DNA from: a virus
Lineage: Duplodnaviria; Heunggongvirae; Uroviricota; Caudoviricetes
Reading direction: 5' to 3' (one strand)
Virus record (IMG/VR): IMGVR_UViG_2563366935_000003
Length of the DNA: 6,571 nucleotides
Positions 1 through 6,571 of the stretch are shown one piece after another. Under the pieces are notes generated by a model. The model did not search any database. It saw only the letters and a list, made by a program, of their open reading frames with translations, and was not told the origin of the DNA. The number at the start of each line of letters is the position of its first letter. Position 1 is the first letter of the stretch. Made by a program: the position numbers and the translations under genes.

Positions 1-53
1 AAGCAGAAAAAGCTTATTATGCTTCCATCGGAAACGATGATCTGGCAGCCTGA
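1..53 (+). CDS. IS629 transposase OrfB, C-terminal fragment (partial at window start)
   Basis: Same frame and sequence as the C-terminus of the 296-aa OrfB at 3503-4393 (...[16 protein letters not shown]); stop TGA at 51-53. Confidence 0.85.
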   Translation, partial: AEKAYYASIGNDDLAA

Positions 54-95
54 GTTCACAGATAAAACACTCTCCAGGAAACCCGGGGCGGTTCA
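1..95 (+). mobile_element. IS629 (IS3 family) 3'-terminal fragment, truncated by the window edge; ends with the right inverted repeat ...GGAAACCCGGGGCGGTTCA
   Basis: Bases 1-95 are identical to 4341-4435 of the complete copy in this window; the terminal IR ends at 95. Confidence 0.9.
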
Positions 96-350
96 TCTAA
101 AATTGCTATACTATTCATGTTGGTTTTTCTCCACGGATTTACCGACAACCGAAGCCCTGACTGTTCCAGCAGTTGGGGCTTCACTGTTTTGATTTCTTTG
201 CCGCATCAAGCATCACTTCTGAAAACGTGCGCTTGCCACTGAATACTCTTTCTCTTCTCAATTTTTCGTTCGTGCCAAATGATTCGCCATGAACAAAATT
301 TGGTCTTAAAATGGTAATCGCAATCTCTTTGACTACTGCATCCAAGCGAA

Positions 351-503
351 TCACACCGTTACCCCCTCTCTCTTCAGGCTGTCTATCAGGCGCTTGATAA
401 CCTCTGAGTTAAACGACCTGCACTCTTCCTTTGCCCTGCTACCGATAGCATCCTTTAACGACTGCGGCATCCTTACCAAAATCTTACTTATTTCTTTCTC
501 CAT
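351..503 (-). CDS. Arc-like ribbon-helix-helix transcriptional repressor (50 aa)
   Basis: Translation MEKEISKILVRMPQSLKDAIGSRAKEECRSFNSEVIKRLIDSLKREGVTV follows the Arc/MetJ RHH pattern (basic beta-strand RMP..L, then ..GRS.NSE.. helix), recalled resemblance to P22 Arc. ATG at 503 is preceded by a strong SD (GGAGGG, about 5-nt spacing); the longer track ORF to 539 begins at a TTG with no RBS. Confidence 0.7.
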   Translation of the reverse strand: MEKEISKILVRMPQSLKDAIGSRAKEECRSFNSEVIKRLIDSLKREGVTV

Positions 504-539
504 GTTACCCTCCACGCAAACAACTCTTTTCGAATACAA

Positions 540-568
540 AAGATAGCAAAGTGAGTATATCTAGTCAA
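540..568 (-). promoter_or_regulatory. Candidate sigma70 promoter for the Arc-like gene: -35 TTGACT (568-563), 17-nt spacer, -10 TATCTT (545-540)
   Basis: Read from the minus strand; hexamers close to consensus with canonical spacing, about 35 nt upstream of the start codon at 503; the -10 overlaps the left arm of the inverted repeat. Confidence 0.35.
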
Positions 569-593
569 AATTTTTTTGCATACACTTTGCTAT
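543..593. promoter_or_regulatory. Perfect 11-bp inverted repeat ATAGCAAAGTG (543-553) / CACTTTGCTAT (583-593), candidate operator in the divergent intergenic region
   Basis: Exact reverse complements separated by 29 bp, centred between two divergent RHH repressor genes; RHH repressors of this type bind palindromic operators. Confidence 0.45.
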
Positions 594-617
594 CAAATTG
601 AATACCAAAGGTGTTAT

Positions 618-866
618 ATGGCAAAGGGTGTGTCAATTTCTCCAACTACGGTAAGAATCCCTGAATCTTTACGCGAGGCTCTTGCTGTCAGAGCATCAAA
701 AAATGGTCGCTCTGTTAACTCCGAGATCGTCATGATTTTGCAAGCCGCGATTGATGAAGATAGGTCGCCAAAGTCAGTTGAGTCATTTGCTCAGCAAGAA
801 GCTGATAAATTCAAAGAGGCGCTACTTGAGACGCTAAAGACCATGTATGCTAAGGATGAAAAATAA
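618..866 (+). CDS. Mnt-like ribbon-helix-helix repressor (82 aa) with C-terminal helical extension
   Basis: MAKGVSISPTTVRIPESLREALAVRASKNGRSVNSEIVMILQAAI... carries the RHH core (NGRSVNSE) and a C-terminal helical tail (FKEALLETLKTMYAKDEK) like the Mnt tetramerisation helix; length matches Mnt (about 83 aa). ATG at 618; the upstream track extension starts at TTG. Stop overlaps the next start (TAATG). Confidence 0.7.
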   Translation: MAKGVSISPTTVRIPESLREALAVRASKNGRSVNSEIVMILQAAIDEDRSPKSVESFAQQEADKFKEALLETLKTMYAKDEK

Positions 867-1402
867 TGCTGCACACAATTCATTTCTTATGCCCTGTTAA
901 CACTGCCACTGTTGGGCAACTTCAGAACCACTGTCTCACCGCATTATCTCAAGGCGCAACTGAATTAAATATCCATATATCAAGTCAGGGAGGGGAAACT
1001 GCTGCTGGCTTTACTGCGTATAACTTTCTTAAGTCACTCCCTGTTACCGTTAGAACTCACAACATAAGCAATGTTGAATCCATAGCTAATATCGTTTTCC
1101 TGGCTGGCTCAGAACGTTTCGCAAACCCATTATCAAGATTCCTGTTACATCCTCTATTATGGTGCTTTGCCTCCCCAGCCGCCGACCATGCCAGATTGAG
1201 AGAGTACGGGAAATGCCTCGATAACGATCTTGATCGCTTCGTTGAGACGTTCAATATCGACATCGGAACCCATATTAGGTGGGCATCCCTGATAGCAGAC
1301 TCGACCATTTTGGATGCTAACAAGGCTCTTGAGCATGGCATAATTAATTCCATAAAAACTGCAAGGCTGGCATCCAATCAGGCAAACTGGTGGGTTGTTT
1401 GA
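866..1402 (+). CDS. ClpP-family (peptidase S14-like) serine protease paralog, 178 aa
   Basis: Collinear with ClpP core motifs: ISSQGG vs INSPGG, a Ser 29 residues after the GG (VESIA vs GQAASMG), His in RFLLHPL vs RVMIHQP, Asp in ADSTI vs ERDRF, and C-terminal EHGIINSI vs EYGLVDSI. Translationally coupled to the Mnt-like gene. Confidence 0.65.
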   Translation: MLHTIHFLCPVNTATVGQLQNHCLTALSQGATELNIHISSQGGETAAGFTAYNFLKSLPVTVRTHNISNVESIANIVFLAGSERFANPLSRFLLHPLLWCFASPAADHARLREYGKCLDNDLDRFVETFNIDIGTHIRWASLIADSTILDANKALEHGIINSIKTARLASNQANWWVV

Positions 1403-1427
1403 TGGGTAAATCATGATTACTCCTTAT

Positions 1428-1453
1428 AAAAAACCCACCTGACGGTGGGTTTA
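1428..1453. terminator. Bidirectional rho-independent terminator between convergent genes
   Basis: Perfect 9-bp stem AAACCCACC (1431-1439) / GGTGGGTTT (1444-1452) with loop TGAC, A-run upstream and T-run downstream; lies between the 3' ends of the ClpP-like gene (+) and the YafO-like gene (-). Confidence 0.6.
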
Positions 1454-1900
1454 GTCAAACATAGTGTTTCTAAAGTCTCTCGCATACCCTGCTAACACTC
1501 TCATTCTATTATGATTGTTAGCAGACATGTGAGCTACAGGATGAAAAAGAGCAATCAATGAATACCTGTTCTCATCAAAAAGATTTTGTGCATAAACGAG
1601 AGCGGTATTGGATGTTTTATGCCACTGCAACTTTTGCGGTGTGCTGATATCTGTGCCATTTTTTATTGGCTCAAATTTATTTTCACCAATTGCTAAATGA
1701 AGGTGCATAAGGCCTGCATCTTCAATATCAGGAGGTCGATGATAAGAGGTGTCTCTGCCAAAATAGCTGGGCAACGTTCCCGTAGACTTGTAGATGATAA
1801 AATCATCTACAAGTGTTTGTTTTAAATCAGGAAACTCAACAAAAACCGGGGAGAAAAAATAGTCAAAACTATCCTGATTATATTCCACGGTTACTTGCAT
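1451..1900 (-). CDS. YafO-family toxin-like protein (putative ribosome-dependent mRNA interferase), 149 aa
   Basis: Motifs DFIIYKSTGTLPSYFGRD, HLHLA, ALVYAQNLFDE, SLIALFHP and the C-terminal ANNHNRM...FR align collinearly with my recollection of E. coli YafO. ATG at 1900 with SD GAGGT; 8 nt downstream of the preceding gene's stop. Confidence 0.55.
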   Translation of the reverse strand: MQVTVEYNQDSFDYFFSPVFVEFPDLKQTLVDDFIIYKSTGTLPSYFGRDTSYHRPPDIEDAGLMHLHLAIGENKFEPIKNGTDISTPQKLQWHKTSNTALVYAQNLFDENRYSLIALFHPVAHMSANNHNRMRVLAGYARDFRNTMFD

Positions 1901-1908
1901 GTTTTACC

Positions 1909-2475
1909 TCAGTGGAAGTTACCAGAGTGAAACACACGAGTCCCGTGCTCAGCAAGCGCACGCAAACCAGCCATATCTACGGAACTATCAAAAACAACCG
2001 GAACACATGAGCGTTGTTTAATAAGACTATTCAGGTTGGTTACGGCAGATCTGGCATCAGCAACAACGATATAGATATCTCTTGCGATCTCTTTAAAATC
2101 AGCAGAAGCTTCTTTGAATACCGATTTCATTGCCCCTTCAAGTCCTCTCAATTGATGCTCTATCAATCGAGACTTTTCTGGTTCAATGATAGACAACACA
2201 TTGTCTACATTCTCATCGGTAGCGTTTGCAAGAACACGATAAGCGTATTTCAGCATTCGAGACAATTCTTTAATCGAAGACACCGCCTCATGAAGCTCAT
2301 CATTAGCCCGTTCACTGCTGAATGAGGATTGATGGTAAGCGTGCTGAACGTTATCAGTAACAACCACCTCACAACTGAACGCAGAAGCTTGCTGTAATAG
2401 CAAACCTATTGCGACTCCAGCTTTGGCAGCGTTCAAGCTAAACATTTCATCAATCCCATTAGTCTCATTGCTCAT
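1909..2475 (-). CDS. Hypothetical protein (188 aa), first gene of the operon with the YafO-like toxin; candidate non-canonical antitoxin or partner
   Basis: ATG at 2475 preceded by a near-perfect SD (AAGAAGGAGG); the track ORF start at 2505 is a TTG without RBS. No recognisable domain; sequence composition suggests a mostly helical soluble protein. Confidence 0.6.
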   Translation of the reverse strand: MSNETNGIDEMFSLNAAKAGVAIGLLLQQASAFSCEVVVTDNVQHAYHQSSFSSERANDELHEAVSSIKELSRMLKYAYRVLANATDENVDNVLSIIEPEKSRLIEHQLRGLEGAMKSVFKEASADFKEIARDIYIVVADARSAVTNLNSLIKQRSCVPVVFDSSVDMAGLRALAEHGTRVFHSGNFH

Positions 2476-2650
2476 ACAAACCTCCTTCTTATCGGAGATT
2501 ATCAATAGCTATGCATCCATTGAATACACGCTATGCGCAATAAGTTTACGTCACGTGATATCATTATGCAACCACCGTTCTATCACCGACTAACTTTACT
2601 CCCACTCCTATACATCATCTGGTATCCTGCGCAAAACTAAGGAGGTTGGT

Positions 2651-3001
2651 GTGAATGCTCAGTCTGTCATCATGGTTTTCCTTGGGCTGATTGTCGCAAA
2701 ACTATATCCAGACTGGTGGAAAGGGGCATTAGCTACTGTCGCCATCTATTTGCTTTTATCCATCGTTAAGCGATCACTCGCTGAGACCGTAAATCAAGCA
2801 AAACGTTTCTCATTTAAGAGTTTAATAAACTATGTTACTGGGCTTATTTTTTGCCTTTCAATTCTGATCGCTTCGGCTTTTTTGCCCGTATCAATAGCTA
2901 ATTTTTTTGGCGCACCATATGAGGTAGGTTATCTATTCTCTGTTTCCTGTCTTGCCATTGCTCTTCTTTACCTGTGGACGAGATCAAAGAATAAAAATTA
3001 G
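2651..3001 (+). CDS. Small polytopic inner-membrane protein (116 aa, about 4 predicted TM helices), function unknown
   Basis: GTG start 5 nt after a strong SD (TAAGGAGG, 2638-2645); four hydrophobic stretches (SVIMVFLGLIVAKL, ALATVAIYLLLSIV, LINYVTGLIFCLSILIASAFL, GYLFSVSCLAIALLYLW) and a basic C-terminus. Confidence 0.6.
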   Translation: MNAQSVIMVFLGLIVAKLYPDWWKGALATVAIYLLLSIVKRSLAETVNQAKRFSFKSLINYVTGLIFCLSILIASAFLPVSIANFFGAPYEVGYLFSVSCLAIALLYLWTRSKNKN

Positions 3002-3125
3002 CCATCCGTGGCTGCCAGTTATTGAGCTTCTTTTTGTGATGCCTGTGCGACTCTGGTGAGCGATTGTGTGACCGTACTGATCGCTCTGTCATATGCTGTG
3101 CTACCTTTTGGCGTATTTGCCAGAC

Positions 3126-3150
3126 TGAACCGCCCCGGGAATCCTGGAGA
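3126..3150. repeat. IS629 left terminal inverted repeat
   Basis: TGAACCGCCCCGGGAATCCTGGAGA is an imperfect inverted match to the right end at 4411-4435. Confidence 0.8.
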
Positions 3151-3179
3151 CTAAACTTCCTGAGAAAGAGGTAAACAGG

Positions 3180-3506
3180 ATGACTAAAAATACTCGTTTT
3201 TCCCCCGAAGTCCGTCAACGGGCAGTCCGTATGGTTCTGGAAAGTCAGAGCGAATATGACTCACAATGGGCGACAATTTGTTCCATTGCTCCAAAGATTG
3301 GCTGTACGCCGGAGACTCTGCGTGTCTGGGTTCGCCAGCATGAGCGGGATACCGGGGGCGGTGATGGAGGGCTCACCACCGCTGAACGTCAGCGTCTGAA
3401 AGAGCTGGAACGTGAAAAGCGTGAACTGCGCCGCAGTAACGATATCCTTCGCCAGGCTTCCGCTTATTTTGCGAAGGCGGAGTTCGACCGCCTCTGGAAA
3501 AAATGA
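3180..3506 (+). CDS. IS629 OrfA (108 aa; helix-turn-helix / leucine-zipper transposase subunit)
   Basis: [65 protein letters not shown]... is recognised as IS629/IS1203 OrfA; SD AGAGG upstream of the ATG. Confidence 0.9.
3497..3503 (+). other. Candidate programmed -1 ribosomal frameshift site (A-run GAAAAAA) at the OrfA/OrfB overlap
   Basis: OrfB lies in the -1 frame relative to OrfA and overlaps it by 4 nt; six consecutive A (3498-3503) sit in the last two OrfA codons. IS3-family elements make an OrfAB fusion transposase by -1 slippage on A-rich heptamers. Confidence 0.4.
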
Positions 3507-4393
3507 TGCCACTGCTGGATAAGCTGCGTGAGCAGTACGGGGTCGGACCGCTATGCAGCGAACTGCATATTGCCCCGTCAACGTATTACCACTGTCAGCA
3601 ACAGCGACATCATCCGGATAAACGCAGTGCCCGTGCGCAGCGCGATGACTGGCTGAAGAAAGAGATACAGCGCGTATACGATGAAAATCACAAGGTATAC
3701 GGTGTGCGTAAAGTCTGGCGTCAGTTGTTACGGGAAGGTATCAGAGTGGCCAGATGCACTGTGGCACGTCTCATGGCGGTTATGGGACTTGCCGGTGTTC
3801 TCCGGGGTAAAAAGGTCCGTACGACCATCAGCCGGAAAGCCGTTGCCGCAGGCGACCGCGTAAACCGTCAGTTCGTGGCAGAACGACCTGACCAGCTGTG
3901 GGTGGCTGATTTTACTTACGTCAGCACATGGCGGGGCTTCGTCTATGTGGCGTTCATCATTGATGTGTTTGCCGGATACATCGTGGGGTGGCGGGTCTCA
4001 TCGTCCATGGAAACGACATTCGTGCTGGATGCACTGGAGCAGGCGTTATGGGCCCGTCGACCGTCCGGCACGGTCCATCACAGTGATAAAGGTTCTCAGT
4101 ATGTATCGCTGGCCTACACACAGCGGCTTAAGGAAGCCGGATTACTGGCATCAACAGGAAGTACAGGCGACTCGTATGACAACGCGATGGCGGAGAGCAT
4201 CAATGGTCTTTACAAAGCGGAGGTAATACACCGTAAGAGCTGGAAAAACCGTGCAGAAGTGGAACTGGCCACACTCACGTGGGTGGACTGGTATAACAAT
4301 CGACGATTGCTGGAAAGGCTGGGCCATACTCCTCCGGCAGAAGCAGAAAAAGCTTATTATGCTTCCATCGGAAACGATGATCTGGCAGCCTGA
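3503..4393 (+). CDS. IS629 OrfB (296 aa; DDE/RNase H-fold transposase catalytic domain)
   Basis: [30 protein letters not shown]... recognised as IS629 OrfB; IS3-family catalytic-core signatures are visible ([24 protein letters not shown]). Confidence 0.9.
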
Positions 4394-4410
4394 GTTCACA
4401 GATAAAACAC

Positions 4411-4435
4411 TCTCCAGGAAACCCGGGGCGGTTCA
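4411..4435. repeat. IS629 right terminal inverted repeat
   Basis: Reverse complement TGAACCGCCCCGGGTTTCCTGGAGA matches the left end. Confidence 0.8.
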
Positions 4436-5593
4436 CATGATGATTGAGTCTGCGTCCTGTTCAATGCTTCCTGAATCACGCAAATCTGCGTTTGTCGGGC
4501 GTTTGTTTGGTCGCTTCTCAACATCGCGTGAAAGCTGACTCAGGGAAATAACCGGTGTTTTCAGGTCTTTCGCCATCGCCTTCAGGCTTCCGGAGATGTG
4601 AGCAATTGCGAGGTCGTTGCGGTCTGCTTTCGGCTTCTCAATCAGGCCAAGATAATCCGCCATGATGAGTGAGAGGTTTGGATTTTCCTGTTTGTGCCGT
4701 TCTGCGATTGAGCGTATTTCTTCGACCGATAATCGCGAGGCATCGACTACCCATACATCCAAATCTGCAAGCTGACTCATGCCGTTAGCAACACGTGCCC
4801 AGCCCTCGTCATCCATCGATGCAGGATTTCGCAGTACGCTAACCGACATCCTCCCGGCGTTGGCAATGCTTCGCTCTGCAATCTGCAATGCGCTCATTTC
4901 CATTGAGAAAATCAATACCCCGCGCCGGACGTCAGAACCAGGAATAACGCGGCTTGCAACGCCTTCGGCAATCTTCAGCGCCAGTTCGGTTTTCCCCATA
5001 CCAGGACGAGCAGCGATTATCACCAGGTCTTCCGCGTTCATCCCTCCGGTGATGGCATCAAGTTCTTCGATTCCGGTCTTCAGGGTATCGGACTCTTCTC
5101 CGTTCCTCAGACGCCTGTCAAGCGTGTCAGTGTAGTCGGTGATGATTTCCCCTAACCGTACAGGTTTAACCTCGTCACGGGGCTTTCTGATGGCTGAGAG
5201 ACGTTTTACAAGTTCATCCATCGCCTGACTCGATGCGTCGATGGTTCCGCTTTGGATTGGTTCACGCATTTCATCCATGATTTCCAGCACCAGACGGCGG
5301 TGATAGTTATCCGCGACCATTCCGGCATATCCCTTCAGGTTTGCGGCGCTCGGGCAGTTTTTGCTGGTCATCAGGATTGACGTGAAATGCTCCTCTCCGC
5401 ACGCCTCGGCAACCATCAGCGCGTCGATTAGGTTTCTGTTTCTCGCCTGCTTCCGGATAACCTCGAAGGCTTTCCGGTAGAGCGGAATTGAAAACGCTTC
5501 CGGCTCCAGCGTTGCAAGAACGTCACTGGCGGTTGGAGTTAATCCACCAATCAGCAGGCCACCGATAACGCTCGCTTCGATATCCTGTCTCAT
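4433..5593 (-). pseudogene. Phage DnaB-like replicative helicase, 3'-truncated by IS629 (about 55-60 C-terminal residues missing)
   Basis: 386-aa translation with DnaB N-terminal domain, Walker A ([10 protein letters not shown]), Walker B (LIMADYLGL) and the motif [32 protein letters not shown]. Reading frame stops only 3 codons after EQDAD, using the TGA formed by the IS629 terminus (4433-4435), where E. coli DnaB has about 55 more residues. Confidence 0.85.
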
Positions 5594-5947
5594 GCAATCC
5601 CCCTGTCTGCAAACTTCCCTTCCCGAACTCCCGTTAACGAGTCTTCTCTCAGCAGGTAATCAAAATCAGCCGTCCAGCCCGTGTCGTTGTCTCCGAAGTA
5701 AAACGGCTTGGCCTGATGCACAAACGCCCTGACATACGCTCTGAAACCGTCCACGTTTGGCGTTTTCAGTTGCGGGATGATTTTCTTCAGGCGGCGTTTT
5801 CGTTTCTCGTTGACCGCAACAGCGTGTGGCAGTCTGTCACCGACTTCGGTGTTGTAGGCGTTCAGGAAGGATTCGTAGTCGATTCGTTCTGCCTTGCGAC
5901 GTTCAGGTTTAACCTGCCCATCGCCTCCCCCATTGGGGGGTAGGGGG

Positions 5948-5975
5948 GTATTATTTATATTCTTGTTAATACCTT
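5948..5975. other. AT-rich stretch adjacent to the iterons (candidate DNA-unwinding element), next to a G/C-rich near-palindrome CCCCCATTGGGGGG (5926-5939)
   Basis: attatttatattcttgttaatacc is strongly AT-rich relative to its surroundings and lies immediately downstream of the iterons in the gene's direction, mirroring ori-lambda organisation. Confidence 0.4.
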
Positions 5976-5980
5976 CTTGT

Positions 5981-6110
5981 TCATGATGTGCGGTTGTTTG
6001 TGCGGCTTCATGTGCGCTTTCATGTGCGGCATGTACGCTGAAAGCCGCGCTATTGCTGGCTTCATCATGTGCGGCATCATGTGCGGTTGTTTGTGCGGCT
6101 TCATGTGCGG
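5981..6110. repeat. Iteron array (candidate phage replication origin): about 8 copies of a 12-bp unit, consensus yTTCATGTGCGG, in two clusters; includes an exact 31-bp duplication (5986-6016 and 6079-6109)
   Basis: Directly visible tandem periodicity: tgtgcggttgtt / tgtgcggcttca / tgtgcgctttca / tgtgcggcatgt ... catgtgcggcatca / tgtgcggttgtt / tgtgcggcttca / tgtgcggg. Lies inside the initiator gene, as ori-lambda lies inside O. Confidence 0.6.
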
Positions 6111-6354
6111 GTAAATTGTCCATTTTTTGAGCATATTCATGGTAATTTGTGATGGTTATCACACGGCCTTTTTGCTTCTCTCCATCAATGGAGATCATCC
6201 CCTCTTTCACAAAAACCTGAAGCATCCGCTCAACCTGATCACGGCTTGCTGGCTTGCCATGTCTGTCGCATAACTGAAGACCTAAATCAGCTGCTGTCAC
6301 AACCAGTTGACCGGGTTGCAGATGCCATTCATGACCTTTGAAATTCGCTTTGTA

Positions 6355-6571
6355 TGAACCGCCCCGGGTTTCCTGGAGAGTGTTTTATCTGTGAACTCAG
6401 GCTGCCAGATCATCGTTTCCGATGGAAGCATAATAAGCTTTTTCTGCTTCTGCCGGAGGAGTATGGCCCAGCCTTTCCAGCAATCGTCGATTGTTATACC
6501 AGTCCACCCACGTGAGTGTGGCCAGTTCCACTTCTGCACGGTTTTTCCAGCTCTTACGGTGTATTACCTCC
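6355..6571 (-). mobile_element. IS629 3'-terminal fragment in inverted orientation, truncated by the window edge
   Basis: 6355-6571 is the exact reverse complement of 4219-4435 of the complete copy; the terminal IR begins at 6355 (TGAACCGCCCCGGGTTTCC...). Confidence 0.9.
6397..6571 (-). CDS. IS629 transposase OrfB, C-terminal fragment (minus strand, partial at window end)
   Basis: Reverse complement is identical to the 3' end of OrfB; stop codon is at 6397-6399 on the minus strand. Confidence 0.85.
   Translation of the reverse strand, partial: EVIHRKSWKNRAEVELATLTWVDWYNNRRLLERLGHTPPAEAEKAYYASIGNDDLAA

Follow-up and report, generated by a model that had tools for sequence, protein, structure and literature searches.

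The left end of the window (the whole 6,571-nt stretch of DNA analyzed here, which is 100% identical to part of scaffold KE136581.1, GCA_000407685.1) begins within an insertion element, IS629. Next to it lie the first codons of a phage antirepressor gene (ant), the antisense RNA gene sar, a small open reading frame that we call ORF57, and the genes for two ribbon-helix-helix repressors, arc and mnt, which diverge from a shared control region. The features of this end of the window are as follows.

1 to 95, plus strand: right end (IRR) of IS629 copy 1, identical to the right end of copy 2; the window begins within the element.
56 to 118, minus strand: chimeric 20-codon ORF, MNSIAILDEPPRVSWRVFYL followed by a stop codon (58-56), formed by the ant stub reading through into the IS629 end.
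96 to 118, minus strand: 5' stub of ant, comprising codons 1-7 (MNSIAIL, 118-98) and 2 nt of the eighth codon; the same ATG is the start of the intact 300-aa Ant in phiv205-1 (locus L001, 4023), epsilon34 (gp18), and APEC O1.
104 to 112, plus strand: surviving part of the sar promoter (Psar), the extended -10 sequence TGcTATACT, placed from the Psar annotation in epsilon34.
119 to 185, plus strand: sar RNA gene, Rfam RF00262, 83.9 bits (gathering score 43), E = 3.9e-17, model positions 1-68 of 68.
128 to 132, minus strand: Shine-Dalgarno sequence of ant, GGAGA, which precedes the ATG by 9 nt, is spanned by sar, and is identical in intact loci.
151 to 182, plus strand: hairpin 2 of sar, an intrinsic terminator (terminator scan; inverted repeat) with a 14-bp stem and then the T-rich tail ACTGTTTTGA.
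181 to 354, minus strand: ORF57, 57 codons, phrog_17642 (E = 1.3e-43), hypothetical protein WP_000620145.1 / QGF19908.1.
351 to 503, minus strand: gene for an Arc-like repressor of the ribbon-helix-helix type (50 aa; Pfam PF03869 Arc, E = 5.1e-12), whose annotation reads either "Arc protein" or "Arc family DNA-binding protein".
540 to 594, between the divergent genes: arc-mnt control region, with a predicted Pant-like promoter on the minus strand (TTGACT-17-TATCTT, 568-540).
542 to 553 and 583 to 594: arms of a perfect 12-nt inverted repeat, GATAGCAAAGTG / CACTTTGCTATC, a candidate operator for the Arc-like or Mnt-like repressors.
618 to 866, plus strand: Mnt-like ribbon-helix-helix repressor gene, 82 aa, Pfam Arc (E = 9.5e-11), in the position and orientation of epsilon34 mnt.

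The boundary between the element and the phage DNA can be read directly. Base 95 is the last base of the IS629 right inverted repeat (...cccggggcggttca), and the junction cuts codon 8 of ant as GA/T. The nature of the element is established by copy 2, which is present at full length in the window (3126-4435): it is 1310 bp long, shares 99.5% identity with elements that are annotated as "IS3 family IS629", and contains an ALIL frameshift pseudoknot (120 bits), in keeping with the terminal repeats, orfA/orfB, and frameshift signal that characterize IS629. The 20-codon frame that crosses from the ant stub into the element is presumably without meaning. The uninterrupted site is present in 272 of 5,426 complete E. 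coli genomes. A 120-nt query across the IS629/ant junction is absent from the same 5,426 genomes, which returned only two-piece joins from another insertion site, and the 38-nt junction had no exact match in a search covering one genome per species.

According to the original prediction, a minus-strand ATG at 118 with an upstream GGAGA opens a frame, MNSIAIL, that runs into the IS629 terminus at 95 and could be the start of a gene destroyed by the element, namely the antirepressor gene of an immI-type locus. Each of these elements is indeed found in the sequence, with the start codon at 118-116 on the minus strand. Intact relatives bear out the rest: in phiv205-1, APEC O1, epsilon34, and P22 a 903-nt gene begins exactly at the position of this ATG. 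Positions 96-118 are identical in the first three of these, and MNSIAIL is the start of the protein in all three. The intact protein contains the P22_AR_N and P22_AR_C domains (residues 14-125 and 200-272) and matches the PHROG family "anti-repressor Ant" (E = 3e-98). Because the intact 903-nt gene, with these domains and this family match, starts at the same ATG, the stub is, judged by sequence comparison, the authentic start of ant, the antirepressor gene of immI. The similarity extends beyond the stub. Over positions 96-183, the ant/sar regions of P22, epsilon34, and some 45 further P22-like phages show an identity of 95.5-97.7% (E = 1e-31 to 1e-34), and 96-620 is 99.6% identical to Escherichia phage phiv205-1. 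At least 80% of 96-620 is found in 76 complete E. coli genomes, and the best 40 of these 76 are all 100% identical; "phage antirepressor Ant" is annotated in 31 of these 40 best-matching genomes, and in the other 9 (about a quarter) the only protein annotated at the ant locus is one with an "antirepressor N-terminal domain". Seven codons by themselves carry no statistical weight, but that MNSIAIL is a chance mini-ORF beside the element with no relation to a gene can be dismissed as practically impossible, given a 23/23-nt match to ant starts in exact register in hundreds of genomes and a conserved ribosome-binding site and sar directly upstream of the start. The P22_AR_N and P22_AR_C domains are absent from the window, which keeps just 7 ant codons; thus, it holds a fragment of the ant gene and not a member protein of the P22-type Ant family.

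In KE136581.1 the far flank of IS629 copy 1 falls in the interior of a tailspike gene, 1,971 nt from its start. When the two flanks are mapped onto APEC O1 (L013), window base 96 corresponds to position 6001 and the far flank to position 3049, so that 2,951 bp are missing; this linkage of ant to the tailspike gene through IS629 rests on a scaffold with a run of Ns inside IS629 copy 1, and the two ends could belong to different copies. Lost with ant codons 8-300 are a 100-bp spacer and 1,971 of the 2,946 nt of the tailspike gene, namely its 5' two-thirds. A 3-bp target duplication is absent at copy 1, which is flanked by CTG and TCT, as well as at copy 2, which is flanked by GAC (3123-3125) and CAT (4436-4438). 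Copy 3 (6355-6571, inverted) has the TAC duplication on both sides, as checked against an intact relative. Since they lack the 3-bp target duplication, copies 1 and 2 mark deletions or rearrangements. For ant itself, because the far flank lies in the tailspike gene and there is no target duplication, the loss appears to be the result of an IS629-associated deletion, 2,951 bp long and extending into the tailspike gene, and not of a simple interruption.

A simple insertion would have left the remainder of ant intact beyond the element, with no deletion. Such an event would be compatible with a window that ends inside IS629 copy 1, with the N gap in this copy in the source scaffold, and with copy 3, which is a simple insertion in the same region. 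It is nevertheless improbable, since beyond the element the sequence is that of the tailspike interior, with unlike flanking triplets, and no other ant sequence occurs within 21 kb around the site. Furthermore, IS629 directly adjoins a truncated tail fiber gene and a truncated ant gene in the sister strain SCU-116 as well. SCU-116 (L003, 5751-7530) carries the same prophage, with an IS629 that is 99.9% identical joined to ant, but 470 nt of ant survive there, along with a shorter piece of the tail fiber gene. Because the endpoints of the SCU-116 deletion differ on both sides, its truncation is a separate event, and IS629-linked loss of ant has therefore happened more than once. With a 2,951-bp deletion as the favored event, the idea that IS629 removed the antirepressor is upheld insofar as ant codons 8-300 are gone, but it needs revision as to how: the element seems to mark a deletion reaching into the tailspike gene and not an insertion alone.

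The 230-bp gap between the arc stop and the ant start was originally described as unexplained, noncoding, and possibly the site of a small antisense or regulatory RNA. An antisense RNA gene is in fact there: the stretch 119-185 on the plus strand matches the sar family over the full length of the model. The region is predicted to fold into two hairpins (-32.4 kcal/mol, z = -6.3), the second of which is the terminator. sar spans the GGAGA and abuts the ATG at 118, a placement that agrees with the sar annotation of epsilon34. Matches to the Rfam sar model occur at the corresponding position in phiv205-1, in APEC O1, in epsilon34, in a prophage of K. aerogenes, and in a metagenome contig, and the pairing of stem 1 is kept by compensatory changes in two of the other loci (L010 and L012). 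Beyond sar, a search of 186-350 for a second structured RNA gave no Rfam match at E values up to 1 except a sub-threshold ctRNA match that overlaps sar. Passages of PMC2629481 and PMC13397905 that cite Liao et al. 1987 and Wu et al. 1987 describe sar as an antisense repressor of Ant translation that originates at Psar, a promoter in the first ant codons, and base-pairs with the ribosome-binding site of ant.

The IS629 junction passes through Psar. Its extended -10 survives, and the sequence TTGCTA(T/A)ACT is invariant in five loci that carry three different ant 5' ends. The position of the -35 element (84-89) is now occupied by CGGGGC from IS629. In intact loci the candidates for a -35 element, at 17-bp spacing, are GTGTTC, GTGCAA, or TTGATA, with GTGTTC being the native sequence displaced by the CGGGGC of IS629. 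Because the -35 region is now IS629 sequence, Psar is probably weakened; it may still fire from the extended -10, yielding sar at a reduced level. A hybrid promoter made of the IS629 end and the Psar -10 was considered and rejected: the candidate GGTTCA is separated from the -10 by just 11 nt, and a promoter scan gave no plus-strand promoter there.

The 57-codon ORF57 occupies most of the rest of the gap. Its GTG start codon overlaps the arc stop codon (353-351) within the sequence GTGA, and its own stop codon lies within the base of the sar terminator stem. In all of the relatives found, homologues of ORF57 are located between arc and an antirepressor gene, and they adjoin two different arc alleles and an antirepressor of either the P22_AR_N or the KilA-N type; copies in other loci lie, for example, at L010 3001-3174 and L012 1542-1760. 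The family is small. About 10 homologues, all near-identical, were found among 5.8 billion proteins; an exhaustive HMMER search of 1.8 billion representatives found no distant homologue, the extra matches being multi-stretch alignments to long, apparently repetitive proteins that were treated as spurious; a tblastn search of 50,697 phage records matched phiv205-1 alone; and the protein has no Pfam match. Its AlphaFold2 model (pLDDT 53.7) is too poor for a fold search. The K. aerogenes copy differs by 8 nonsynonymous and 3 synonymous changes, which correspond to a dN/dS of about 0.7 but are too few to be informative. Rare variants have a frameshifted C-terminus (P0004 and P0006, 77 aa, and P0008), and the metagenome copy contains an in-frame insertion of 45 nt bounded by a short repeat (AGAAGAGAAAGAGT.TTCA). 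Thus, the evidence that ORF57 may be a coding gene is mixed.

Two readings of this interval follow. One of them goes beyond the original prediction in giving the gap a protein function. ORF57, which moves together with the 3' end of arc and the sar terminator and is found beside different arc alleles and antirepressor types, would be a translationally coupled fourth protein of some immI regions, and it could modulate Ant, Arc, or sar; separately, the mnt-arc-sar set retained by a dead prophage would protect the cell against incoming P22-like phages, with sar expressed from the extended -10 alone. This proposal is speculative, and we regard it as unlikely. The other is that 186-350 is a noncoding spacer or leader, that the frame of ORF57 is a chance one kept open in young, near-identical DNA, and that sar is the sole functional element of the gap. 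This has a serious claim, if somewhat less than an even one. The dN/dS of about 0.7 from just 11 substitutions, the frameshifted C-terminal variants, the lack of a Pfam match and of distant homologues, and the low model confidence all agree with it. Against it, the frame is open in every locus found, the 45-nt insertion stays in frame, the start and the arc stop share 4 or 8 nt, as is seen in coupled genes, and the position is constant beside two arc alleles and two antirepressor types. In addition, 186-350 shows no unusual folding on either strand (z = -0.39 and +0.21) and, hence, no positive sign of an RNA element. As to the original description of a noncoding gap, the proposal of an antisense RNA was right, but a small annotated ORF accounts for about 170 bp of the gap. 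The label "remnant" for 96-350 does not hold, since this stretch is 100% identical to that of intact prophages and nothing in it is degraded. For annotation, the stub should be called an ant pseudogene fragment, and the interval merits both sar (RF00262) and a small hypothetical ORF.

On the far side of arc, the 12-nt inverted repeat in the divergent control region is a candidate operator; its right arm has one mismatch in phiv205-1. Taken as a whole, 96-866 is very probably the immI control region of a P22-like prophage of the APEC-1/phiv205-1 type in which an IS629-mediated deletion of 2,951 bp truncated ant and left sar and ORF57 unaltered. The order is mnt on the plus strand, the divergent promoter/operator region, and then, all on the minus strand, arc, ORF57, the interval containing sar and the ant leader, and ant. 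In intact relatives, Pant would transcribe arc, ORF57, and ant, and the promoter within the first ant codons would produce a 67-68-nt sar RNA in the opposite direction. In P22, the pairing of sar with the ant ribosome-binding site blocks the translation of Ant. Here, with IS629 abutting codon 8, the deletion would have taken the rest of ant, the spacer between ant and the tailspike gene, and most of the tailspike gene itself; what remains, unaltered, in 96-350 is the ant leader and stub, full-length sar with its terminator, and ORF57. We infer that Ant cannot be made and that mnt, arc, and sar persist without a target in cis, acting at most in trans on incoming phages of the immI type. In P22 lysogens, action of Mnt in trans on incoming phages of the same immI specificity is a known role.

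The locus resembles immI of P22 and epsilon34 in having divergent mnt and arc repressor genes of the ribbon-helix-helix type, a sar gene that lies across the ant ribosome-binding site with the extended -10 of its promoter in the first ant codons and a terminator hairpin, and an ant start that is 95.5-97.7% identical in DNA sequence. It differs in that its Arc and Mnt are divergent alleles and in that ant is truncated at codon 8. In epsilon34, moreover, the arc stop directly abuts the 3' end of sar, whereas here ORF57 intervenes. Another close match is the APEC-1 type of "ant moron" (APEC O1, S88, and ATCC 11775; phiv205-1; PMC2629481). Positions 96-3125 are 100% identical to APEC O1, and ORF57, arc, mnt, a Clp-protease-like gene, a YafO-like toxin gene, and others are shared; unlike here, where IS629 replaces 2,951 bp, the 903-nt ant and the tailspike gene are intact there. 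The gene order of APEC O1 and phiv205-1 is ejection protein genes, moron genes, mnt, arc, ORF57, ant, and tailspike. The present locus likewise lies between a gene 16-like ejection protein gene and the tailspike gene, which is the position of immI. Loss of ant with retention of the neighboring moron genes is known and recurrent: degraded ant genes occur in HK620 and Scho1, and rapid flux, degraded ant genes, and an insertion of the IS3 family have been described for the ant moron/immI region (PMC2629481). The present locus is one more case of the recurrent loss of ant from P22-like ant morons. All of its components belong to known, curated families, and its sequence is identical to that of annotated genomes; thus, the finding is one that is already known, ordinary prophage decay.

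Between mnt and the second IS629 lies further moron cargo (866-2505), which is 100% identical to APEC O1. It consists of a ClpP-like protease gene (866-1402, plus strand), a YafO-family toxin gene (1451-1900, minus strand), and, directly upstream of the latter, a 198-aa ORF with no family match (1909-2505, minus strand). The YafO-family toxin and the 198-aa ORF could be a toxin-antitoxin pair.

The remainder of the prophage has been altered by IS629 as well. Copy 2 fuses what is left of a DnaB-like helicase gene, at 4433-5593, to the terminal part of the gene 16-like gene, with the junction 106 nt from that gene's 3' end. The truncated helicase gene obtains its stop codon from the end of the element. 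The interval that should separate these two genes is gone; in P22-like phages it carries the nin, lysis, and virion-assembly genes. Copy 3 (L004, 7890-9270) interrupts an O-like replication initiator gene, of which the window ORF 5590-6300 is the 3' part. Thus, at least three IS629 events have shaped this prophage, of which a heavily decayed remnant is left, and it is dead irrespective of the loss of ant. The original prediction held that the insertion had fixed the locus in a repressor-only state. This is literally true, in that mnt and arc are kept and ant is gone, but it is of little consequence because the sequence from the helicase gene to the gene 16-like gene has been lost and the replication genes are disrupted.

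The source prophage (L004, 16679-19031) also retains the 3' part of the tailspike gene, with the End_tail_spike and Peptidase_S74 domains. Next to it is a gene with a weak Hexapep match (an acetyltransferase gene), which adjoins an integrase gene, intS. This arrangement presumably resembles that of CUS-3-type K1 prophages carrying neuO. The same 386-aa helicase, truncated by the insertion element, is also found in unrelated lambdoid prophages (for example, L005).
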